Assembly (NCBI GenBank): GCA_964574495.1
Contig: CAZNNT010000004.1
Location: forward strand, 1 to 34,206
DNA: 34,206 nt
Direction of reading: 5' to 3'
Source: an uncultured Candidatus Saccharibacteria bacterium
Lineage (GTDB): Bacteria; Patescibacteriota; Minisyncoccia; HO2-45-28
In this document: one piece after another, positions 4,738 through 31,336 of the stretch
How the letters are laid out: the number at the start of each line of letters is the position of its first letter
Numbering within the stretch: the stretch's first letter is position 1
Notes under the pieces: generated by a model
The model's input: only the letters and a program-made list of their open reading frames with translations
Told to the model about the DNA's origin: nothing
The model's database searches: none
Program-made: the position numbers and the translations under genes

Positions 4738-5283
4738 TCAAAGCTGGCTCATCTTGAGTCCGAGTTCGTAAATTTTACGGATATAGTCCGCCCCCTCGCC
4801 ATCGGCGGCATCAAACCAGTTATTGCCGGTAATGATTTGTTTTTGCGAAGAAACATAGCCAAGACGATGCAGAAGCCGCGCGCGAAAAAGCCCTTCAAAC
4901 CCCCCAGTTGTCAAACACCCGGTGTTTGACAAAACGCCGACCAAAAGATTCCAAACAACTTCGTCTTTTTCTTGGCCTTTTATCAGGCGCTCAACAAAAG
5001 AAAGGGCTTTTTTTAACGACGCGCAGGCCCGCTCATCATACGGAAGCCGTAAGATTTCTTCGGCGTCTGTCAGGCGCATAAACTCCTTGCCTTCTATGAA
5101 AGATAATCTGACCAAAGAATAAAGTCCCAAGTGACTTCGTAATTTTGATTTTTCCAGCCGGATTCCCCGAGCTAAAACAGATATTTTTCCAAAATCTTTG
5201 GTGTAGATATTATATATGCGGTCGGCTTCTCCGAAATCCGTTGCCGATAAAATTATGCCTTCGGTACGGTGAAGGTTATACAT
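4738..5283 (-). CDS. recO: DNA repair protein RecO (short form)
   Basis: N-terminal OB fold TEGIILSATDFGEADRIYNIYTKDFGKISVLARGIR..KSKLR; LLHRLGY near the C-terminus. Confidence 0.9.
   Translation of the reverse strand: MYNLHRTEGIILSATDFGEADRIYNIYTKDFGKISVLARGIRLEKSKLRSHLGLYSLVRLSFIEGKEFMRLTDAEEILRLPYDERACASLKKALSFVERLIKGQEKDEVVWNLLVGVLSNTGCLTTGGFEGLFRARLLHRLGYVSSQKQIITGNNWFDAADGEGADYIRKIYELGLKMSQL
4908..4932. repeat. Palindromic REP-like element inside recO
   Basis: TTGTCAAACACC-C-GGTGTTTGACAA, with 12-nt perfect inverted arms inside the reading frame. Confidence 0.6.
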
Positions 5284-10699: not shown

Positions 10700-12940
10700 T
10701 TAAAACGATTCAAAAAAATTCTTGCCTTCTTCGTTTTCGTCCGGCCCTCTGTCGTCCTCTTCGGCTTGCCGCGGCTCTTCATTCTCTTTTTTAATCAAAA
10801 CCTCTCGGGGCTTGGCGCCGTCCGCCGACCCTATCACGCCCCGCGACTCCATAATGTCCAAAAGGCGCGCCGCCCGCGCGTAGCCCACCCTTAACCGGCG
10901 CTGCAGATAAGAGGCCGAGGCCTTGCCGGCTTGAAGCACGACTGTTTTGGCTTCATTGTAAAGTTCGTCATCAATGTCTTCATCTTCCGCATGGTCAAAA
11001 ATGGAGGCCTTTCCCTCTTCCGGCTCAAAATTCAAAGCGTCAACTTGAGCCGGAACATATTGCGTTTCAAGATGTTGGGCGACTTTTCGCACTTCCGTCT
11101 CCGAAACAAAAGCGCCCTGGAGACGGCGCGGCTTGGAAGTGTCTCCGGACAAATAAAGCATATCGCCGTTGCCTAAAAGTTTTTCCGCTCCGGCCATATC
11201 CAAAATGGTTCTGGAATCAACTTGGGAGGCCACCTGAAAAGCGATGCGGCTCGTGATGTTGGCCTTGATTAAACCGGTTATCACTTCAACCGACGGCCTT
11301 TGAGTGGAAACAACCAGATGAAGGCCGACGGCTCGCGACATTTGAGCGAGGCGCACGATTGAGGCCTCCATTTCTCTGGGATATGCCGCCATAATATCGG
11401 CCAATTCATCTATGACTATTATAATGTAGGGCATCGGCGAATCCTCGGCTTCTTTGGAAGTCTGATATGATTTTATGTCGCGGACCTTGGCCGCCGACAA
11501 AAGCTCGTATCTTCGCTCCATTTCTTTAGTCGCCCACTTCAAGGCCATTATGGCTTTTTTGGCGTCGGTTATAACGGGAGTTAAAATGTGCGGGATTCCG
11601 GAATAAACCGAAAGTTCAACTCTTTTCGGGTCAATCATCAAAAAACGGAGCCGCTCCGGAGGATTGCGATACAGAAGCGACATCATCATCGCGTGAATCG
11701 CCACTGATTTTCCGGAGCCCGTAGAGCCCGCTATCAAAAGATGCGGCATACGCCCGAGGTCGGCAAAAAGCACCCGCCCAGAAACATCGCGTCCGAGACC
11801 CAAAAGCAGCGGCGTTCCGGAAGACGCGTATTCGTCTTGCGATAATACGCTTGCCATACCCACCAGAGCCATACTCTTATTGGGCATCTCAACTCCAATC
11901 AAGGATTTGCCCGGAATCGGGGCCTCAATTCTGATGGGGTGGGCCGCTAGCGCCAGAGCCAGATCATTTTGCAAAGCGGTTATGCGCGAAAGTTTAATGC
12001 CTTCGGCCGGACGCAGGGTGTATTGGGTTATGGAAGGGCCGATGTTAATTTCTCCCATCTCAACTAAAATTCCGAAATTCTGAAGAGTTCTTTTAATTAT
12101 GTTGGCGTTGGCTTTAATATCGCCCGATGACGGTTTGCCTTTATCTTCTTCCAAAAGGCCGAGAGGCGGCGGCTTAAATTCCGATACGGCGATTTTTTTA
12201 TTTCTATAATTTAGGGCAAATGGCTTTTCAGCCAAAGACGACTCGTCTTCTGCCGCCTCATCTTTAAGCGGCGGTTGAGAAAGAGGATTTTCGATTTTGG
12301 GTTTTAACGCCAATTCCTGACGGATGGCTTCCGCCGCTTCTTTTATTTTGGAGAAAGCCGAAGCGGCCTGCGGTTTTTCAGATTCTTCATCGGAGTTTTC
12401 GGCCGGAGGTTCAATCTCTTCAGGCATCGGGGTTTTAGCAAACCAGCGCCGGGGCTTGATGGAAATATTAAGAGTCAAAATAAGGGCGGAAACGGAAACG
12501 GCGGCCAGTATCACGAGTGTTGCCCAAAAATCAAAAAGTTTAAGCAGGGGCTTTGAAACCCAAAAACCGAAAAAGCCCGCGGCTTTTTCTCCAAAAATCA
12601 AATCAAAGATGCCAAGAGCCGAGAACAGCATAAGCGCCGCGCCGCCAATGGTGGTGGCGACCAAATTAGTTCTTAAGGAAAAAATAAAAGACAGGCCGGC
12701 TGTAAAAAAAGTCAATGGAACAAGAAAGAAGGCGCCTCCAAAAAGCATTTCCAAAAAATTATACAGGCCCTGGCCGACAAAACCGGCCTTGCCATAAGCG
12801 GCGAGTATAAATAAAAGCGCGGCGGCGAACGAAAAAACCGCCCATATGGAGTGCTTGGTTTCTTTGTTCAGCCGTTCGGAATGAAGGACATCTTCGTCCT
12901 CCGACTTCCTTGACGGCCTGCCTCTCCTTTTTTTCTTCAT
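10700..12940 (-). CDS. ftsK: DNA translocase FtsK/SpoIIIE
   Basis: 4TM N-terminus, PHLLIAGSTGSGKS, IDPKRVEL, IIIVIDELAD, gamma domain LQRRLRVGYARAARLLD. Start placed at 12940 because TATAAT lies at 12954-12949. Confidence 0.97.
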   Translation of the reverse strand: MKKKRRGRPSRKSEDEDVLHSERLNKETKHSIWAVFSFAAALLFILAAYGKAGFVGQGLYNFLEMLFGGAFFLVPLTFFTAGLSFIFSLRTNLVATTIGGAALMLFSALGIFDLIFGEKAAGFFGFWVSKPLLKLFDFWATLVILAAVSVSALILTLNISIKPRRWFAKTPMPEEIEPPAENSDEESEKPQAASAFSKIKEAAEAIRQELALKPKIENPLSQPPLKDEAAEDESSLAEKPFALNYRNKKIAVSEFKPPPLGLLEEDKGKPSSGDIKANANIIKRTLQNFGILVEMGEINIGPSITQYTLRPAEGIKLSRITALQNDLALALAAHPIRIEAPIPGKSLIGVEMPNKSMALVGMASVLSQDEYASSGTPLLLGLGRDVSGRVLFADLGRMPHLLIAGSTGSGKSVAIHAMMMSLLYRNPPERLRFLMIDPKRVELSVYSGIPHILTPVITDAKKAIMALKWATKEMERRYELLSAAKVRDIKSYQTSKEAEDSPMPYIIIVIDELADIMAAYPREMEASIVRLAQMSRAVGLHLVVSTQRPSVEVITGLIKANITSRIAFQVASQVDSRTILDMAGAEKLLGNGDMLYLSGDTSKPRRLQGAFVSETEVRKVAQHLETQYVPAQVDALNFEPEEGKASIFDHAEDEDIDDELYNEAKTVVLQAGKASASYLQRRLRVGYARAARLLDIMESRGVIGSADGAKPREVLIKKENEEPRQAEEDDRGPDENEEGKNFFESF

Positions 12941-26261: not shown

Positions 26262-26501
26262 ATGAAAAAATGCGCGATTTGCGGCAAAGGTTCACGTATG
26301 GGTGGGAAAAGAAATCTTTTGCGCGGCAAATACAACCCGACTAAAACCCTAAGAAAAAAACCCAATCTGCAATGGGCGCGCTTGCCCGTTGGAGCTTTAC
26401 TCGCCCGGCGTAGCCTTGGCGTAGCGGGGGCGAAGGCAGGGCTTCCCGATGGCAAAAGGGTTTTAGTTTGCACGAAGTGTATTAAAAAATTGTATAAGTA
26501 A
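26262..26501 (+). CDS. rpmB: 50S ribosomal protein L28 (Zn-binding type) with an about 20-aa in-frame insertion
   Basis: CAICGK...KPNLQ...RVLVCTKCIK. Confidence 0.92.
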   Translation: MKKCAICGKGSRMGGKRNLLRGKYNPTKTLRKKPNLQWARLPVGALLARRSLGVAGAKAGLPDGKRVLVCTKCIKKLYK

Positions 26502-26561
26502 CCCGCCCGCTGCGGCGGGCAAAGGCGGGGTGTAGTATACCGGCAGTACGCATGCATGGGG

Positions 26562-26629
26562 GTGAAGCGCGAAGATATTCGCGCTTCACGGGATTACTTC
26601 TTCTTAATATAAACAATAAAAGTAATCCC
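26562..26629 (+). repeat. Twin-hairpin insertion module (copy 1)
   Basis: GTGAAGCGCGAA-GATA-TTCGCGCTTCAC directly followed by GGGATTACTT-(..AATATAAACAAT..)-AAGTAATCCC. Confidence 0.75.
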
Positions 26630-26651
26630 TGGCTTTTTTGAGTTATTTGGT

Positions 26652-26725
26652 CGGGGTGTAGTATACCGGTAGTACGCATGCATGGGGTGCATGTAGACCG
26701 GGTTCGATTCCCGGCACCCCGACCA
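26652..26725 (+). tRNA. tRNA-Pro(GGG), intact, CCA encoded
   Basis: Acceptor CGGGGTG/CACCCCG, anticodon arm CATGC-ATGGGGT-GCATG, T arm CCGGG-TTCGATT-CCCGG, then ACCA. Confidence 0.95.
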
Positions 26726-26843
26726 GATAACTGAAAAAGATGTAGACCGGGTTCGATTCCCGGCACCCCGACCAAGTTAGAAAAGCGCGAGGAATTTGAC
26801 TATTTTATATCGCGTTTAAAATCTTTGCCACTGAAAAGAGAAA

Positions 26844-26880
26844 GGCCTCGACCACAGCATTGGATGCCGCAGTCGAGGCC
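26844..26880 (-). terminator. Terminator after 26897..27460
   Basis: GGCCTCGAC...GTCGAGGCC stem followed on the minus strand by TTTCTCTTTT. Confidence 0.7.
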
Positions 26881-26896
26881 GTTGGCCGAGCCGAGA

Positions 26897-27460
26897 TCAG
26901 GCGAGCGCATGGGTAGCGGCTCCGATTTTCTGGCTCAACTGTTCGAGCGAGAGCAGAGTTTCCTCGCCCTCATTCGTCCAGAGACGACGCGTGCCGACTT
27001 CGCAGCTGACACGACGCGACTTGTCGCCGCGAGTGAAGGAGAAGATGAGCTTGGGGTTCTTCCTCGAGGGCATCTGAAACGCGATGACCTTGATTCCCGT
27101 CTGCTCGAGCTCCGCCTTCTTCACTTCGGGAAGAAGTTGTGCAAGAAGGTCGTCGCCCTTCTTGATGCGATCCGCGTACTGACCGTCCATCAGGTCGCTG
27201 AGACCATCGGACGGCTTGAAGCGCGGATTGAACGGGCACTCGCGGATGTTGCACTGTCTGCAAACGATACCCTTGACCTTCGACAGGTGGGGCTCTTCCA
27301 ACATCAGTGCACCGCGAGTCCACTCGGCCGTCTTCATTCCCGCGGCTTCGAGTTGCGGGATGAGGACTGTCGCCAAGTAGGGCTGATGATCCTCGGGGAT
27401 GAGACATCCCTTCGGAAAACAGCACGTTTCCAGAACGTTGAACGTTCTTTCAGTTTCCAC
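26897..27460 (-). CDS. Cys-rich hypothetical cargo protein (GC-rich, foreign-looking)
   Basis: GTG start with AAGGAG SD, own promoter and terminator; TCCFPKGC and CRQCNIRECPFNP. Confidence 0.75.
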   Translation of the reverse strand: METERTFNVLETCCFPKGCLIPEDHQPYLATVLIPQLEAAGMKTAEWTRGALMLEEPHLSKVKGIVCRQCNIRECPFNPRFKPSDGLSDLMDGQYADRIKKGDDLLAQLLPEVKKAELEQTGIKVIAFQMPSRKNPKLIFSFTRGDKSRRVSCEVGTRRLWTNEGEETLLSLEQLSQKIGAATHALA

Positions 27461-27488
27461 GGAATTCTCCTTTCGTTAGGTGTGTTTG

Positions 27489-27643
27489 TTTACTCGATTC
27501 TAGCAACGCATTACATACCTTTTATTAGATACACAATGCGTTGCTATCGAGTAAAAGCGTCTATCTCTGCTGTAAAAGAGCTAAATAATCCCGACTGGAT
27601 TACTGCCATCAATATAGCATATACGAGCTTGAAAGTCAAGCTC
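27489..27643 (-). promoter_or_regulatory. Promoter, operator-like palindrome, boxA-like motif and long leader hairpin
   Basis: TTGACT-17-TATATT (27639-27611); GAGCTTGA-AAG-TCAAGCTC over the -35; GCTCTTTTACA (27581-27571); 21-bp bulged stem at 27489-27555. Confidence 0.65.
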
Positions 27644-27699
27644 AACAGAAAAACCCCCTATTTTAGGGCTTTTTCTAGGTTTCTGTATTGGATTAAAAA

Positions 27700-27811
27700 A
27701 TTTTCTTTTCCCCGAATGCAAAACCGCCAATTCGTTTTTGAGCCCAAAATGCAATACGTTTTGACCGCCGAGCGAAGCGAGGCGGCTGTCTCAAACTTGC
27801 AATTTCCTAAA
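27700..27811 (+). mobile_element. Probable remnant of an integrative-element or recombinase C-terminal tail abutting the tRNA-Leu 3' end
   Basis: The frame reads FPRMQNRQFVFEPKMQYVLTAERSEAAVSNLQFPKWCPGWELNP into the antisense tRNA. This resembles tails of tRNA-targeting recombinase genes from recall; not searched. Confidence 0.4.
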
Positions 27812-27898
27812 TGGTGCCCGGGGTGGGAGTTGAACCCACATGGTATTGCTACCGACGGATCTTAAGTCCGTTGCGTCTGCCAGTTCCGCCACCCGGGC
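27812..27898 (-). tRNA. tRNA-Leu(TAA), CCA encoded
   Basis: GCCCGGG/CCCGGGC acceptor, ACGGA-CTTAAGA-TCCGT anticodon arm, long variable arm, GGTTCAACTCC. Confidence 0.95.
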
Positions 27899-27927
27899 AA
27901 TAGTAATTTAAAAAATAAAATTACATG

Positions 27928-27999
27928 AGGCCTGGGCGGGAATCGAACCCGCGTGTAAGGGTTTTGCAGACCCTTGCCTTACCACTTGGCTACCAGGCC
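27928..27999 (-). tRNA. tRNA-Cys(GCA), CCA not encoded
   Basis: GGCCTGG/CCAGGCC acceptor, AGGGT-CTGCAAA-ACCCT, GGTTCGATTCC, U73 discriminator. Confidence 0.95.
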
Positions 28000-28004
28000 G
28001 TCCG

Positions 28005-28340
28005 TCATTTTTCTTTTTTTAAAATTTCCTCCACTTTCATCCGCGCTTTTTCGCCCTTGTCTATTTTAAACTCAAAAACGGGCATATATTTGATTTTAAA
28101 ACGCTCTTTCATATATTTATAGAATTCTTTTTTGGAATTTTCAAGAGATCTCATGATTTCTTTTTCTCCGTCCTCCGGCCAGACGCTTATAAAAATTTTC
28201 GCCTCTTTAAATCCGGGAGTGATTTCAATTCTTGTCGCCGTAACCAAGACCCCGACGGCATCAATTTCCCGCTTAATAAAGTCCGCCGCGAGTTTTAAAA
28301 TAAGCGAGTGCGCGCGCCCGGCGCGCTTTTGACTTATCAT
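28005..28340 (-). CDS. rbfA: Ribosome-binding factor A
   Basis: Directly after infB; LVTATRIEITPGFKEAKIFISVWP...IKYMPVFEFKID. Confidence 0.88.
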   Translation of the reverse strand: MISQKRAGRAHSLILKLAADFIKREIDAVGVLVTATRIEITPGFKEAKIFISVWPEDGEKEIMRSLENSKKEFYKYMKERFKIKYMPVFEFKIDKGEKARMKVEEILKKEK

Positions 28341-29863
28341 ATTTCCGGCTTTATTTTTTCTTCCTCAATTATTTCCATTTCATCGCCCTCGGCCAAAGCG
28401 ATTTTGGCCGACACTCTCGCGCCAAATTCTTTTCCCTCTTCCACTTGCGCTACGCGTTGTTTGGCCTGCTCCAATTCCTGTATTTTACCCTCTCCAAGAA
28501 CATTGCCCCGCCTTTTTATCCTAAAGCGTTTGCCTCCGGCCACCATGCCCTTAAGAACCCGCCCGCCGATTATTTGGTCTTTCACGCCTTGTTTAAAAAT
28601 CCTGATAATCTTTGCCCGCCCCAGTTCTTTTTCCGCTATTTCTTCGGGCAGAATCTTTTTAATTTCGTCTTTCAGCCAGTCAATCACATCATATACCACC
28701 TCAAACACCTTTATTCTGACGGAAAATCTTTCCGCAAGATGGAGAGCCGTATTTTCTATGCCGACTTTGAAGCCGACAATAATGGAATTCGCGGAGCCGG
28801 AAGCGAACTTCACATCATCTTCACTGACAGCTCCGGTTTTGAGGCGCAATATTTTTATTTTTAATTTTTCCGATTCAAGTTTCTTAATTTCTCCCTCCAC
28901 GGCTTCGGCTGAACCGGCCATATCGGCCTTTATAATAATCGGTATTTCAAAAATTTTTCCGCCTTTATCCGGCGCTTGCGCGGCCGGAGACGGCTCTTTG
29001 GCTTTAAATTTTGACGCCGCTTCTTCGGCTTCTTTTTTTGAAAAAAATGTTTCAAAAGTAGAGCCGACTTCAGGCAAAAAATTAAACCCGACCACGCGCG
29101 CCGGCTGTCCTGGGGAGGCCTCTTTTATTTTGTGGCCGGCAAAATCCTCAAAAATTCTCACGGGCGCCGTCACTCCTCCGCTTGCGATAAATTGGCCCTG
29201 GCGCAAAACGCCGTTTTGAATTATTAAAGTGGCGGCGTTGCCCCGCTTGGAATCAAGATGACTTTCAATAATTACTCCCGAGGCCATCGCCTGCGGATCG
29301 GCCTTCAGTTCTTCCAAATCGCTTACTAATGTCACCACTTCCAGAAGATCGCCGATACCCTCGCCGGTCTTAGCCGATATCGGCACCAGCGGAATTTTTC
29401 CGCCCCATTCTTCAATCAGAACATTTTTCTCCGAGAGATCTTTTTTAACTTTTTCCAAATTGGCTCCGGATTTATCAATTTTATTTAAAGCGACGACGAA
29501 AGGAATGCCGGCCGAATTTATCGCCTCAAGCGCTTCGGAGGTCTGGGGCTTGATGCCGTCATCCGCCGCGATAACCAAAATCGCGAGGTCCGCGACTTTC
29601 GCGCCGCGGGACCGCATCTTTGAGAATGCTTCATGCCCCGGCGTATCAATGAAAGTTATTTTTCTCGCTTCGCCCTCTTTCGTGCCGACCAGCGCTTCAT
29701 ACGCTCCGATGTGCTGGGTTATGCCGCCGGATTCGTGTTCGGCGACATTTGTTTTTCGTATGTGGTCAAGAAGCGTGGTTTTGCCATGGTCAATATGCCC
29801 CATTATCACCACGATGGGGTTTCGCTCGGTCAATTTTTGATTTTGTTCGTTTGCTTCCTTCAT
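28337..29863 (-). CDS. infB: Translation initiation factor IF-2 (short, lacking the N-terminal domain)
   Basis: MGHIDHGKTTLLD, GGITQHIGAY, DTPGHEAF and NKID. Confidence 0.98.
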   Translation of the reverse strand: MKEANEQNQKLTERNPIVVIMGHIDHGKTTLLDHIRKTNVAEHESGGITQHIGAYEALVGTKEGEARKITFIDTPGHEAFSKMRSRGAKVADLAILVIAADDGIKPQTSEALEAINSAGIPFVVALNKIDKSGANLEKVKKDLSEKNVLIEEWGGKIPLVPISAKTGEGIGDLLEVVTLVSDLEELKADPQAMASGVIIESHLDSKRGNAATLIIQNGVLRQGQFIASGGVTAPVRIFEDFAGHKIKEASPGQPARVVGFNFLPEVGSTFETFFSKKEAEEAASKFKAKEPSPAAQAPDKGGKIFEIPIIIKADMAGSAEAVEGEIKKLESEKLKIKILRLKTGAVSEDDVKFASGSANSIIVGFKVGIENTALHLAERFSVRIKVFEVVYDVIDWLKDEIKKILPEEIAEKELGRAKIIRIFKQGVKDQIIGGRVLKGMVAGGKRFRIKRRGNVLGEGKIQELEQAKQRVAQVEEGKEFGARVSAKIALAEGDEMEIIEEEKIKPEI

Positions 29864-29894
29864 ATTTTATTTTGAAAAAATCAAGCATAACCGT

Positions 29895-30353
29895 TTATGC
29901 CGTGGCTTTCTCAATCGCCTCTTTTTCTTCATTGGAAAGCTGGTAATGCGACCCGCCTGCGGCTACCGGTTTGGCGTAAACTCTGCTTTGCTCTCTTCCG
30001 TAAAGTCCGGATACCACAAATCCGTTTTTCTTTTCGTCAAGCACGGCGATTGAAAAACTCTGTTCTCCCCCGACCCCTTCGTAAGGATTAAAACGCACAA
30101 TGCCCAAATGCTGGGCGCTTCTTTGAAGGCGTCTTTCCATGTGCCCCAAAAATTCATCAATCTCTTTTTCTTTTCTTAAAAAATGCTTAAGGCCGTCTTG
30201 AATTTCGGCAAGCACATTTTGCAGATTTTCGGCTCTGCTCCCTCGAAAAAGTTTTTTCAGCCGCAATTCAAACAAAATTAACCAGACAATACTGAAAGTG
30301 GCCGCGCTCAACGCAGCTATCGCGATCCACCCTGTTTGCTCGCCAAAAATCAT
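29895..30353 (-). CDS. DUF4446 family membrane-anchored protein
   Basis: N-terminal TM, coiled coil, GIVRFNPY..GGEQSFSIAVLD...GFVVS..YGRE.SRVYAKP...LS.EE.EA. Confidence 0.85.
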   Translation of the reverse strand: MIFGEQTGWIAIAALSAATFSIVWLILFELRLKKLFRGSRAENLQNVLAEIQDGLKHFLRKEKEIDEFLGHMERRLQRSAQHLGIVRFNPYEGVGGEQSFSIAVLDEKKNGFVVSGLYGREQSRVYAKPVAAGGSHYQLSNEEKEAIEKATA

Positions 30354-30448
30354 GTTTATAAGAATAACCTAAAATCATAAAAAAATAAAGATTGGCGGTG
30401 TCCGTTCGGATATTTTCAAATACACAGCGCAAAGCACGAGGTGTCGCC

Positions 30449-30477
30449 TTGACATAACTCCTAAATCAGAATAAAAT
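30449..30477 (+). promoter_or_regulatory. Sigma70-type promoter
   Basis: TTGACA-17 nt-TAAAAT. Confidence 0.75.
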
Positions 30478-30532
30478 TATCTAGCTCCTTAAAATCTAAA
30501 ATCGCGCAACCCAGGCTTAAAGGAGGTCAGTC

Positions 30533-30715
30533 ATGTCGAAGTGCCCTAATTGTGGTTCCCAAATCGAGATCAGTATCACATCCGATGAGAAGCAATGGAA
30601 ATGCGATGGCTGCGGCAAGAAATGCACAGGCGAGTCGATCCAAGAAGATGGTGAGCAGTACGACTTCTGTTCTATTGAATGCCGACGGCGCTGGGAAAGA
30701 AGGCGTGGTGGGTAA
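30533..30715 (+). CDS. Small Cys-rich metal-binding protein (Zn ribbon plus TRASH/YHS-like motif)
   Basis: AAGGAGGT SD; CPNC, CDGC and FCSIEC; own promoter and terminator. Confidence 0.75.
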   Translation: MSKCPNCGSQIEISITSDEKQWKCDGCGKKCTGESIQEDGEQYDFCSIECRRRWERRRGG

Positions 30716-30749
30716 CCCACTGAACGTGTCGCGCTCGATCAAGCCACCG

Positions 30750-30790
30750 TGGACGCTAGAAGTTCAACTCTTCCGGCGTCCATTTTTTTT
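30750..30790 (+). terminator. Intrinsic terminator
   Basis: TGGACGCTAGAAG...CTTCCGGCGTCCA-TTTTTTTT. Confidence 0.8.
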
Positions 30791-30919
30791 AAAGATAGCA
30801 TATTACTATCTTTATGTCAAAATTTTTGAGTAAAATTAACTGGCGCGGGTGCAGGATTTGAACCTGCGAGGGGATTTCTCCCCAACTGGTTTTCGAGACC
30901 CCGTACAAAATTTGACTAT

Positions 30920-31006
30920 CGGCGGGAGAGGGATTCGAACCCCCGATACCCTTTCGGGTATACCGCATTTCGAGTGCGGCCCGTTCGTCCACTCCGGCAT
31001 CCCGCC
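30920..31006 (-). tRNA. tRNA-Ser(CGA), intact inner copy, CCA not encoded
   Basis: GGCGGGA/TCCCGCC acceptor, CCGCA-CTCGAAA-TGCGG, variable arm ATACCC-GAAA-GGGTAT, GGTTCGAATCC, G73. Confidence 0.95.
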
Positions 31007-31042
31007 AAATTTTTATACGGGGCGAGCCAGCGCTTTAGTCCG

Positions 31043-31107
31043 GGGCGACAAATTTTTTATATTTATTACTGTAGTCGCCCGTCAAAAGCTACTTAAACGC
31101 TTTTGAC
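31043..31107 (-). repeat. Twin-hairpin insertion module (copy 2)
   Basis: Minus strand GTCAAAAGC-9 nt-GCTTTTGAC directly followed by GGGCGAC-(..AATATAAAAAAT..)-GTCGCCC. Confidence 0.75.
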
Positions 31108-31177
31108 CCGCTCAGCCAACCCACCTCAATATTGGTCATATTGAGTTTAGCAGAAGAAATTGATATTCCAAAAAAGT

Positions 31178-31336
31178 TTATTTAGGCGCCCTTAATCCCC
31201 AAATGCCCAAAATGAGCGAAGCCGCTATGGCTATTCCTATTATATAATCGGGCTTGACGGCATCGCGCGCTAAAATAGTGTAAGCTGCCATCAGCCAGAT
31301 AATAACTATTGTAATTGCGAGCCATGGGTACTTCAT
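31178..31336 (-). CDS. 52-aa two-TM small protein (YPW motif), paralog 1
   Basis: Manual translation MKYPWLAITIVIIWLMAAYTILARDAVKPDYIIGIAIAASLILGIWGLRAPK*. Confidence 0.75.
   Translation of the reverse strand: MKYPWLAITIVIIWLMAAYTILARDAVKPDYIIGIAIAASLILGIWGLRAPK

Follow-up and report, generated by a model that had tools for sequence, protein, structure and literature searches.

Some integrative elements target tRNA genes and restore the displaced part from their own copy. IS607-like elements have a serine recombinase and a GG core. IS608 inserts at a 19-nt offset from its target. Mobile tRNA introns of the Thermoproteales are short and related, and occupy non-canonical sites, D-loops among them, in several tRNA genes of one genome; they depend on a bulge-helix-bulge (BHB) motif and the EndA endonuclease and are spliced (Fujishima et al. 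2010, as cited in PMC10714607). Helix-bounded intervening sequences of bacterial 23S rRNA are cut by RNase III and are common in CPR bacteria, according to PMC11270868.

How does the present locus compare? The window, meaning the whole stretch of 34,206 nt that was analysed, belongs to a genome here called G000; G001, G002 and G003 are genomes of the same genus. Two copies of a short twin-hairpin module lie in the window, each within an outer tRNA gene. Nested in each outer gene, on a long helix termed the “stalk”, is a whole inner tRNA whose anticodon matches that of the outer one (Pro-GGG and Ser-CGA), as found with ARAGORN, Rfam and BLAST. The parts of the two units are:

26526..26561, + strand: outer tRNA-Pro(GGG), 5' fragment, nt 1-36 through the anticodon (BLAST with the inner tRNA, 97.2% over 36 nt)
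26562..26589, + strand: module copy 1, hairpin 1; 28 nt, GT...AC, 12-bp perfect stem, 4-nt loop GATA
26590..26629, + strand: module copy 1, hairpin 2; 40 nt, GGG...CCC, 10-bp stem, 20-nt loop, 85% A+T
26630..26632, + strand: TGG linker after copy 1
26633..26651, + strand: Pro stalk, 5' strand, pairing with 26722-26739
26652..26725, + strand: inner complete tRNA-Pro(GGG), the working gene (ARAGORN; Rfam RF00005, 55.8 bits)
26726..26739, + strand: Pro stalk, 3' strand, continuing from the ACCA end of the inner tRNA (duplex fold)
26740..26775, + strand: outer tRNA-Pro, 3' fragment, from nt 40 onwards, with nt 38-40 (TGC) missing (BLAST, 100% over 35 nt)
31108..31125, - strand: outer tRNA-Ser(CGA), 5' fragment with acceptor, D-stem and D-loop to G18G19 (collinear with the intact tRNA of G002)
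31081..31107, - strand: module copy 2, hairpin 1; 27 nt, 9-bp stem, GTCAAAAGC...GCTTTTGAC subfamily
31043..31080, - strand: module copy 2, hairpin 2; 38 nt, GGG...CCC, 7-bp stem, 24-nt loop, 92% A+T
31040..31042, - strand: CGG linker after copy 2
31027..31039, - strand: outer tRNA-Ser, middle piece, comprising what is left of the D-arm and the anticodon stem's 5' strand (aligned with the intact tRNA of G002)
31007..31026, - strand: CTCG and Ser stalk, 5' strand (CCCCGTA...; duplex fold)
30920..31006, - strand: inner complete tRNA-Ser(CGA) (ARAGORN 30919-31007; Rfam 30920-31006, 54.1 bits)
30899..30919, - strand: 6-nt spacer and Ser stalk, 3' strand (...TACGGGG; duplex fold)
30841..30898, - strand: outer tRNA-Ser, 3' part running from the anticodon loop as far as CCA and lacking 1 nt of the acceptor 3' strand (alignment to G002)

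The module has a fixed order, namely GG, hairpin 1 (GT...AC), hairpin 2 (GGG...CCC) and NGG, with no spacer between the hairpins, and the word AATATAAA(C/A)AAT is found in the hairpin-2 loop of both window copies. An earlier, sequence-only reading of this DNA had given the coordinates and stem lengths of the two copies, the absent spacer, the GG before, the TGG or CGG after and the loop word, all of which are confirmed. It had also placed the insertions in the anticodon loop of Pro and the D-loop of Ser, which is where they lie: after the GGG anticodon and G37 in the former, after G18G19 in the latter. The nested inner tRNAs did not appear in its description of the two outer genes. Its claim of “complete covariation” is overstated for two copies; their hairpin 1 belongs to different subfamilies, and their pairing comes partly from the picking of hairpins. 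Among the family members listed, NGG directly follows hairpin 2 in 31/39. The 9-bp base of hairpin 1 is kept across families while its top covaries. Hairpin-2 arms differ in pair type among members, in a comparison that kept only hairpins with at least 6 pairs, a selection that itself accounts for some of the pairing. A third hairpin, with a GAGGG/GAAGG-like loop, is present in some copies. Because a MAFFT alignment of four modules misaligned the hairpin-2 arms, the counting took the hairpin ends as its anchors. A promoter within the module was also considered, the end of hairpin 1 (TTGAC/TTCAC) and TATAAA in the hairpin-2 loop resembling -35 and -10 elements. It was rejected: a sigma-70 scan of 26300-31300 for both hexamers at 16-18 nt spacing gave 12 sites, none of them in the modules, and the hairpin-2 loop is G+C-rich in many family members.

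Are the outer genes still functional? Both module-bearing outer tRNA genes in the window are dead, the Pro gene without nt 38-40 and the Ser gene with its deletion in the acceptor 3' strand, and a check of both sequences excludes a functional tRNA even with the inserts exactly removed. Set against the intact tRNA of G002, the outer tRNA-Ser has 89 nt rather than 90, with 5 substitutions and 1 deletion. These facts bear on the idea of a true bacterial tRNA intron, in which the module would be spliced from an outer tRNA that stays functional and the nested tRNA would be a later back-up. The sites are those an intron might use, namely the anticodon loop and the variable pocket of the D-loop, where GG is retained on either side, and the presence of related short inserts in different tRNAs recalls the Thermoproteales introns cited in PMC10714607. 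At locus L338, nothing but a D-loop insert disturbs the outer tRNA-Ser(GGA), the state expected of an intron-bearing gene, and its exons would give a functional tRNA once the insert is removed, unlike those in the window. At L244, the module sits in an anticodon loop and no tRNA was called in the ~520 nt scanned downstream of hairpin 1. Against this stand the dead genes of the window and several further results. Matches to EndA (PF01974) and RtcB (PF01139) were found in 0/5 genomes, with controls matching in archaea, and the reverse transcriptase family RVT_1 had no match in the 5 genomes. Neither group I (RF00028) nor group II introns, nor any other ribozyme or intron family, matched the module loci, and 65-68 nt is too short for such introns; the same tool does detect a group I intron in tRNA-Asn (57.3 bits). 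Finally, the full tRNA sets of G000 and of G003, a complete genome, contain no module-bearing tRNA that lacks a nested, intact tRNA with the same anticodon. An intron is therefore very improbable, and the suggestion of an intron or processing signal in the sequence-only reading is not supported for the window copies, given the dead outer tRNAs and the missing enzymes.

Is the likeness of the two copies more than accident? A scan of both strands of the 783-kb assembly for two abutting perfect hairpins gave 40 matches at ~30 loci, of which only the two window copies combine GT...AC, GGG...CCC and an A/T-rich loop. Elsewhere, a near-identical hairpin 1 lies in the D-loops of the outer tRNA-Cys and tRNA-Ile of G003. 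The hairpin-1 base motif occurs in 12/401 genomes of the class, with 0 for the reversed control; 8 of the 10 new motif loci are in a tRNA D-loop, another falls in an insert that has a copy of a tRNA 3' end on each side, and the last is unrelated. GG, hairpin 1 and GG stand together at at least 56 distinct metagenome or genome loci, the counts from genome and metagenome contigs being lower bounds. Further copies thus exist, and chance is thereby excluded. Across many isotypes the module turns up as a defined unit at a single position of the D-loop and, among the matches listed, points the same way as the nearest tRNA in 36/38 copies that have one within 700 nt. The earlier description of a structure-defined, recurrent mini-element that favours tRNA genes is thus upheld, and its notion of tRNA targeting survives as a strong preference. 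It does not survive as a strict rule: 10/37 of the listed copies with at least 450 nt of downstream flank have non-tRNA flanks and no tRNA.

The same nested architecture recurs across families of the class, with inserts in the D-loop, anticodon loop and T-loop of tRNAs. Inner and outer anticodons agree in 13/14 units in which both could be read by eye. The inner tRNA lies within hairpin 2 at L243, L276, L326, L338 and L353; at L276, the same hairpin-2 stem as in copy 1, with one G.T pair, encloses a stalk and a tRNA-Lys. At L232, nesting of tRNA in tRNA reaches three levels. The boundaries of the Pro unit are identical in four families, and in G000 remains of an older gene surround or adjoin 7/38 called tRNA genes. 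Among the same-genus genomes G001, G002 and G003, intact un-nested genes stand at the syntenic Pro and Ser loci. The G003 Ser unit has the same nesting, with flanks 97-98% identical, and no module; its D-loop is like that of the intact G002 gene and unlike an excision scar. The module therefore arrived separately from the nested Ser gene. The module-less Ser allele (joint 31038->31110) is also present in contigs of 4/4 runs from 2 studies. Outer parts decay, with T-arm deletions and, in G003, loss of the 3' part.

Taken together, these data give about an even chance that the twin hairpin is a mobile DNA element, non-autonomous and strand-specific, with GG in hairpin loops as its target and at times a tRNA cargo that rescues the broken gene. 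The observations behind this reading are the anatomy, the recurrence, the presence or absence of the module among close relatives, the dead outer genes, the orientation bias and the Watson-Crick purity of the hairpins. How might such an element work? It would consist of hairpin 1, hairpin 2, NGG and at times a third hairpin, and would insert next to a GG in a hairpin loop, above all G18G19 of the tRNA D-loop and, here, the GGG anticodon of tRNA-Pro as well. Insertion would kill the tRNA gene, so that copies would survive in already-dead tRNA genes, in intergenic DNA, or with a tRNA cargo of the same anticodon. That cargo would be a complete tRNA on a helical stalk, replacing the function of the broken gene. 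The Pro unit may represent one cargo-bearing insertion (hairpin 1, hairpin 2, TGG and stalk-tRNA-stalk). The Ser unit may reflect two events: a stalk-flanked tRNA-Ser cassette entering the anticodon stem of the resident gene and, later, an empty module entering the D-loop of the dead outer gene. Movement would occur at the DNA level through folded single-stranded DNA, with an enzyme probably supplied in trans. Strand-specific insertion and hairpin ends, traits of IS200/IS605 and REP/RAYT elements, are both seen here in the 36/38 co-oriented copies and the perfect stems. The flanking repeat is GG only, with no clear target duplication beyond it; the base after the second GG is A/G, versus T in intact genes.

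It is also possible to read the units at the RNA level. The outer halves, hairpins and stalk would then form one precursor from which RNase P, RNase Z and RNase III free the inner tRNA, the module being a folding or protein-binding part. The stalks contain G.U in 50/383 pairs, as is typical of RNA helices; in the Pro stalk, the duplex fold has 17 Watson-Crick and 2 G.U pairs, including a few outside the listed coordinates. Such a scaffold would also accommodate the location of all inserts in tRNA loops, where the L-shaped fold could tolerate them, the co-orientation with tRNAs and the unchanged boundaries of the Pro unit. The conserved 9-bp base of hairpin 1 beneath its covarying top and the third hairpin would fit an RNA or protein-binding role as well, and the varying pair types of the hairpin-2 arms point the same way. 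Yet plain genes suffice at the same loci in close relatives, the otherwise identical G003 Ser unit does without the module, the outer parts decay freely and, among the matches listed, those 10/37 copies lie away from any tRNA. In addition, the insert hairpins have far fewer G.U pairs (7/274) than real RNA helices of the same genomes, namely the inner tRNAs (37/447, p=0.002) and the stalks (50/383, p=9e-7). This purity may reflect young age rather than pairing at the DNA level. On balance, a processing scaffold is unlikely. Two further observations concern the stalks: the 5' strand of the Ser stalk is similar to the CCCCGTTAGA palindromic family, and an integron attC site (GTTAGA/TCTAAC) was rejected by reading of the sequence, the core sites being in reversed order relative to an attC and the window stalks lacking GTT.

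A different kind of mobility would leave scars of integrative elements: the tRNA fragments would be att-site duplicates after integrase insertion and deletion, and the hairpins leftover arm sequence. Transfer RNA genes are the usual integration sites; in G000, the Lys-TTT and Glu-TTC genes show T-loop-type direct repeats of tRNA 3' ends around 150-170-nt inserts, and a 966-bp segment adjoining the Pro unit is missing from contigs of 3 runs. However, the outer pieces in the window are complementary halves of one gene rather than duplicates, with only the module and cassette between them, the inner and outer tRNA-Ser are not related in sequence, and the module is a defined unit at its one D-loop position. 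The direct repeat of a tRNA segment together with an integrase that such a scar implies was not found in the window, which has no integrase; the one tyrosine recombinase of G000 (PF00589 match) is on another contig. Scars of this kind are accordingly quite improbable.

What could move the module? The sequence-only reading was correct that the window holds no cognate enzyme, and none is encoded beside the module; in the genomes searched, no transposase or recombinase is linked to it. The neighbouring ORF at 30533-30715 (+) has weak zinc-ribbon matches only, and for the one at 26897-27460 (-) neither Pfam, NCBIfam nor the Atlas gave a match. A search within 6 kb for a distant closing arm of hairpin 2 found only short closures and one second unit, in L353, and no autonomous, ORF-bearing copy. 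No TnpB was found in G000 or G003. As to co-occurring enzymes, G000 does have three Y1/HUH genes, and Y1_Tnp is present in 34/61 relatives; Y1/HUH was not found in G015, G016, G046, G048, G050 and G059, six genomes that carry nested units, and the hairpins flanking the three genes of G000 belong to families other than the module. A MITE- or REP-like unit, perhaps moved by an HUH enzyme, is the best of the three options offered earlier. Comparison with Rfam, also proposed there, gave no family for the module: at the gathering threshold (release 15), the window matches 4 tRNAs only, and 12 module-bearing loci at E<=0.5 match only tRNAs and, below threshold, tRNA sequence weakly. Full-text searches of literature outside subscription journals turned up nothing on bacterial tRNA genes that are nested or carry hairpins in the D-loop, and the element and the nested-tRNA architecture are apparently new to that literature.

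What are the implications? In these reduced genomes, tRNA genes are essential and mostly single per anticodon. If the mobile-element reading is true, then first, an element can invade essential RNA genes with no need of splicing, since it brings a spare along. Second, this would explain why unrelated tRNA sequences stand at one locus in close relatives. Third, the orphan tRNA halves that annotators meet in CPR genomes would be accounted for. As a hairpin site that is compact and defined by sequence, the module also points to a putative DNA or RNA enzyme that could now be sought. More tentatively, and probably beyond what will prove true, the module could mark self-propagating tRNA-gene replacement, in which a loop-seeking element breaks a gene and simultaneously delivers a working tRNA with the same anticodon. 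Such an element would be neutral to the host and hard to lose, and repeated invasions would build nests. RNA genes would then have a selfish element of a new class, and much of the turnover and horizontal transfer of tRNA genes in CPR bacteria would run mainly through it, with an enzyme that is perhaps single-strand or RNA-guided.

Several known systems resemble the module in part. REP/BIME sequences with RAYT and hairpin-only derivatives of IS200/IS605 are, like it, short, non-coding, strand-specific and built of near-perfect hairpins, and they are moved in trans; G000 does have HUH (Y1_Tnp) genes flanked by palindromes. No link of the module to those genes was found, and it differs in directly abutting its target, in targeting a tRNA loop and in sometimes enclosing a whole tRNA. 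The GG at both module junctions would fit an IS607-like element, although PF00239 has no match in G000, G002 or G003. MITEs resemble several cassette stalks (for example, that of the G000 tRNA-Ala), which have the ends CCCCGTTAGA...TCTAACGGGG of a palindromic family found in many phyla. In that family, 62/123 copies (at least 123 were found) are flanked by an exact 4-bp repeat, many of the matches listed have inverted ends of 10-15 bp, and 1/82 copies examined holds a tRNA, ARAGORN having covered 80/120 stalk loci. The twin-hairpin module differs from MITEs in its termini: each hairpin is self-complementary, but the GTC/GTG... at the left is no inverted copy of the ...CCC NGG at the right. The repeat on its two flanks is GG. 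Integrative elements that target tRNA genes share with it the tRNA-loop target and the restoration of function by incoming sequence; the module unit differs in its size of ~130-180 nt, its whole tRNA on a stalk, its lack of an integrase and the old gene left as complementary halves. Thermoproteales introns likewise place related short inserts in several tRNA genes of one genome, whereas the module has a bacterial host without EndA or RtcB matches, dead interrupted genes and a nested replacement tRNA. The intervening sequences of 23S rRNA share with it insertion into a loop of a structural RNA gene and a long closing helix, but rRNA, unlike a tRNA, works in pieces, and what lies inside is here a product, the inner tRNA, and not waste.

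Both copies of the module, which consists of hairpin 1 (GT...AC), hairpin 2 (GGG...CCC) and NGG inserted after GG, are located in old, interrupted tRNA genes, each with a complete tRNA of the same anticodon nested inside it. The window, contig C4 of the G000 assembly (783 kb, 55 contigs), contains four tRNAs according to ARAGORN and Rfam. The coordinates, stem lengths and GG/YGG flanks proposed by the sequence-only reading are confirmed: GG precedes each copy, and TGG or CGG follows. The modules and the two nested units, in which a long helix (the stalk) flanks the inner tRNA, are laid out as follows.

26562-26589, + strand: copy 1 (Pro unit), hairpin 1, perfect 12-bp stem
26590-26629, + strand: copy 1, hairpin 2, perfect 10-bp stem
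31107-31081, - strand: copy 2 (Ser unit), hairpin 1, perfect 9-bp stem
31080-31043, - strand: copy 2, hairpin 2, perfect 7-bp stem
26526-26561, + strand: Pro unit, first piece, outer tRNA-Pro nt 1-36, then hairpin 1, hairpin 2 and TGG
After TGG, + strand: Pro unit, 19-nt stalk strand, its complement standing 3' of the inner tRNA
26652-26725, + strand: Pro unit, complete inner tRNA-Pro(GGG), between the stalk strands
26740-26775, + strand: Pro unit, outer tRNA-Pro nt 40 to the 3' end, after the second stalk strand
First piece, - strand: Ser unit, outer tRNA-Ser nt 1-19, then module and CGG
After CGG, - strand: Ser unit, 13 nt of outer D-arm and anticodon stem
After the 13-nt outer piece, - strand: Ser unit, CTCG and a 16-nt stalk strand
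31006-30920, - strand: Ser unit, complete inner tRNA-Ser(CGA), unrelated in sequence to the outer gene
End of unit, - strand: Ser unit, spacer and other stalk strand, then outer 3' part

A scan of the whole assembly for abutting perfect hairpin pairs gave 40 matches at ~30 loci, and among these only the two window copies combine GT..AC, GGG..CCC and an A/T-rich loop. The two outer Pro pieces match the inner gene at 97% and 100% identity, with nt 38-40 absent. Removal of both inserts by coordinates leaves an outer Ser gene that is collinear with its intact tRNA-Ser(CGA) counterpart in the same-genus genome G002, apart from five substitutions and the loss of one base in the acceptor 3' strand. 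Judged from the missing nt 38-40 and the acceptor-strand deletion, the outer genes are predicted pseudogenes and the inner genes the predicted working copies. Could the module nevertheless be a true tRNA intron, as had been suggested? For the window copies this is excluded because the outer genes are dead and neither EndA nor RtcB was found in the five genomes searched. For the module family, where loci L338 and L244 speak in favor of an intron, that explanation is very improbable.

The sequence-only reading had also suggested looking for further copies and comparing the module with Rfam. No Rfam family matches it, and further copies are plentiful. In the same-genus genome G003, a near-identical hairpin 1 follows G18G19 in the outer tRNA-Cys and the outer tRNA-Ile, both of which contain a nested inner tRNA; in Ser loci of other families (L005, L008, L015 and L018) the same D-loop position is occupied by twin hairpins with other sequences. 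Of 401 genomes in the class, 12 have the 9-bp base of the Ser-copy hairpin 1 (0 for the reversed control). Ten new hairpin-1 loci comprise eight tRNA D-loops (Ser, Asn, Glu, Ala, Thr and others), one site between two tRNA 3'-end copies, and one unrelated hairpin. Genome loci and a metagenome scan (at least 119 stretches) yield at least 56 distinct copies of hairpin 1 bounded by GG on both sides. Among the copies listed, hairpin 2 starts with GGG and ends with CCC, with several Watson-Crick types among the inner pairs, and NGG follows it in 31 of 39. A minority have a third hairpin after hairpin 2, whose loop is often GAGGG-like. Covariation among the top three pairs of hairpin 1 is modest (7 double changes, 99% of cells paired).

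What is the relationship between the module and tRNAs? Among listed copies with enough downstream flank, 27 of 37 have a same-strand tRNA within 600 nt and 10 of 37 have non-tRNA flanks that likewise end in GG; the module is therefore a unit in its own right, with a strong but not absolute D-loop preference. Scars of integrase activity do not fit, since the outer pieces are complementary halves and the module is a defined unit. In five loci (L243, L276, L326, L338 and L353) hairpin 2 encloses a stalk and inner tRNA, and in the Pro unit of the window this cargo occupies the place of the third hairpin of other copies, which suggests that the module can carry a tRNA. The hairpin-2 stem of L276 is that of the Pro copy, with one G.T pair. 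Inner and outer anticodons are the same in 13 of the 14 units where both are readable, the exception (L015) differing by one base. Locus L232 (genome G180), at 1380-1900, has three nested levels: the outermost tRNA-Ser, which carries a module and a cassette, encloses a second tRNA-Ser, itself split by a module and cassette, with an intact tRNA-Ser(CGA) innermost.

G.U pairs account for 7 of 274 pairs in the insert hairpins, 37 of 447 in inner tRNAs and 50 of 383 in stalks, and 36 of the 38 listed copies with a tRNA within 700 nt run in the same direction as the nearest one. Pairing and orientation together point to an element acting at the DNA level. A scaffold for RNA processing would accord with the G.U pairs of the stalks, the placement of inserts in loops and the conserved hairpin-1 base, but it is less likely given that close relatives have plain genes, outer parts decay freely and some copies lie away from tRNAs.

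The same loci in relatives suggest an order of events. At the syntenic Ser locus, G002 has a plain gene of the outer type. In G003, where identity to the window in the flanks is 97-98%, the outer 5' part precedes the stalk and inner tRNA known from the window, and the module is absent; the G003 D-loop reads as that of the intact gene with one substitution, unlike an excision product. This module-less unit suggests that the Ser module entered an already dead D-loop in the window's lineage. Contigs of four runs from two studies also have the module-less form (31038 joined to 31110 through three other letters). The Pro locus is occupied by plain genes of another sequence type in G002, G003 and a third same-genus genome, G001. 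The nested Pro unit is also found in three other families (G050, G017 and G015) with the same boundaries and other hairpin and stalk sequences, and Pro-CGG and Pro-TGG variants occur in G040, G059 and G007. The tRNA-Ala(CGC), Thr(CGT) and Leu(CAA) genes are nested in G000 and intact in G003. tRNA-Ser(GCT) is nested in both G000 (C13 9294-9474) and G003 (751748-752000), with outer gene, hairpin and stalk base shared and different inner tRNAs, so the cargo appears to have been exchanged. Outer remnants occur on 7 of the 38 called tRNA genes of G000, six of them nested and tRNA-Glu(CTC) with a 3' remnant only. Two further G000 genes have T-loop-type repeats: 3' of tRNA-Lys(TTT) (C42 334-576) and tRNA-Glu(TTC) (C2 28324-28582) is a G+C-rich structured insert of ~150-170 nt, followed by 18 nt that exactly repeat the tRNA 3' end, T-loop onward. 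Hairpin 1 of the Pro unit in G017 shares part of the Lys insert.

Most likely, the module is a non-autonomous mobile element with strand-specific insertion beside GG in a hairpin loop. The substrate would probably be folded single-stranded DNA. Disruption of a live tRNA gene in this way would be lethal unless the element supplied a tRNA with the same anticodon; such selection would explain both the same-anticodon rule and the presence of empty modules only in dead outer genes or intergenic sites. Repeated invasion of the current working copy would produce nests such as that of L232. A search of the window bears out the earlier remark that no cognate enzyme is encoded there, and neither G000 nor G003 has TnpB, a serine recombinase or a reverse transcriptase. 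The proposal of a MITE- or REP-like unit moved by an HUH enzyme agrees with this reading in its mobile, non-autonomous part; the three HUH genes of G000 (C2 8210-8890, C1 53743-54465 and C5 12958-13638) have flanking palindromes of other families than the module hairpins, and a search of six genomes with nested units found no HUH gene.

One REP-like 21-nt palindrome family (GTCAAACA..TGTTTGAC) occurs at window 4910-4930 and in G000 at C2 2330, 8168, 8390 and 8893 and C29 2989, with no copy found in G003; two copies flank a 226-aa HUH (Y1_Tnp) gene (C2 8210-8890) and a third lies inside it. In five relatives (G001, G004, G007, G035 and G047) a Y1_Tnp-like gene lies ~0.3-2.5 kb from a tRNA-Pro gene, which could be conserved synteny or a link.

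The stalks of several cassettes end like a palindromic family, CCCCGTTAGA...TCTAACGGGG, that is distributed over many phyla; the Ser stalk of the window only resembles these ends. Exact 4-bp repeats flank 62 of 123 family copies among the matches listed, and 1 of 82 copies examined has a tRNA inside. CCCCGTTAGA-ended elements with 4-bp repeats (consensus TNNA) occur, among the matches listed (L104-L223), in Omnitrophota, Planctomycetota, Desulfobacterota and many CPR groups, for example at L109 2105-2221 and L117 543-658. By eye, two lie just within the starts of murC-like and atpD-like genes, whose frame is restored once the element and one repeat are taken out.

Several other features were observed. 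First, a tRNA-Asn(GTT) uncalled by ARAGORN in G003 (L077:12291-12925) and G000 (C22 ~11714-12345) has its halves separated in the anticodon loop by ~560 nt; the insert opens with an ORF and matches the group I intron model RF00028 (57.3 bits; G003 L077 12576-12882). The split gene is the only visible tRNA-Asn and therefore must be spliced. Second, contigs of three runs skip 966 bp of the window (26846-27811; 26845 joined to 27812). This G+C-rich segment, which resembles a small island, extends to the tRNA-Leu 3' end and has an ORF (26897-27460, - strand) that matches no family. Third, ~100-140 nt directly 3' of tRNA-Leu(TAA) (27692-27837) are 77-78% identical to two G003 places, 630012-630101 (right after an inner tRNA-Ser) and 622403-622538. 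Fourth, the IF-2 DNA of infB (28337-29873) is 75% identical to G003, against 95% for the adjoining rbfA and 98% for the far flank, which suggests that infB was locally replaced or is fast-evolving.

In those parts of the literature covered by the search, neither nested tRNA genes nor hairpin inserts in D-loops were found to be described for bacteria. The module is rated as akin to small hairpin elements or to tRNA-targeting elements that restore their own target, and there is a fair chance that the system as a whole is new in kind.
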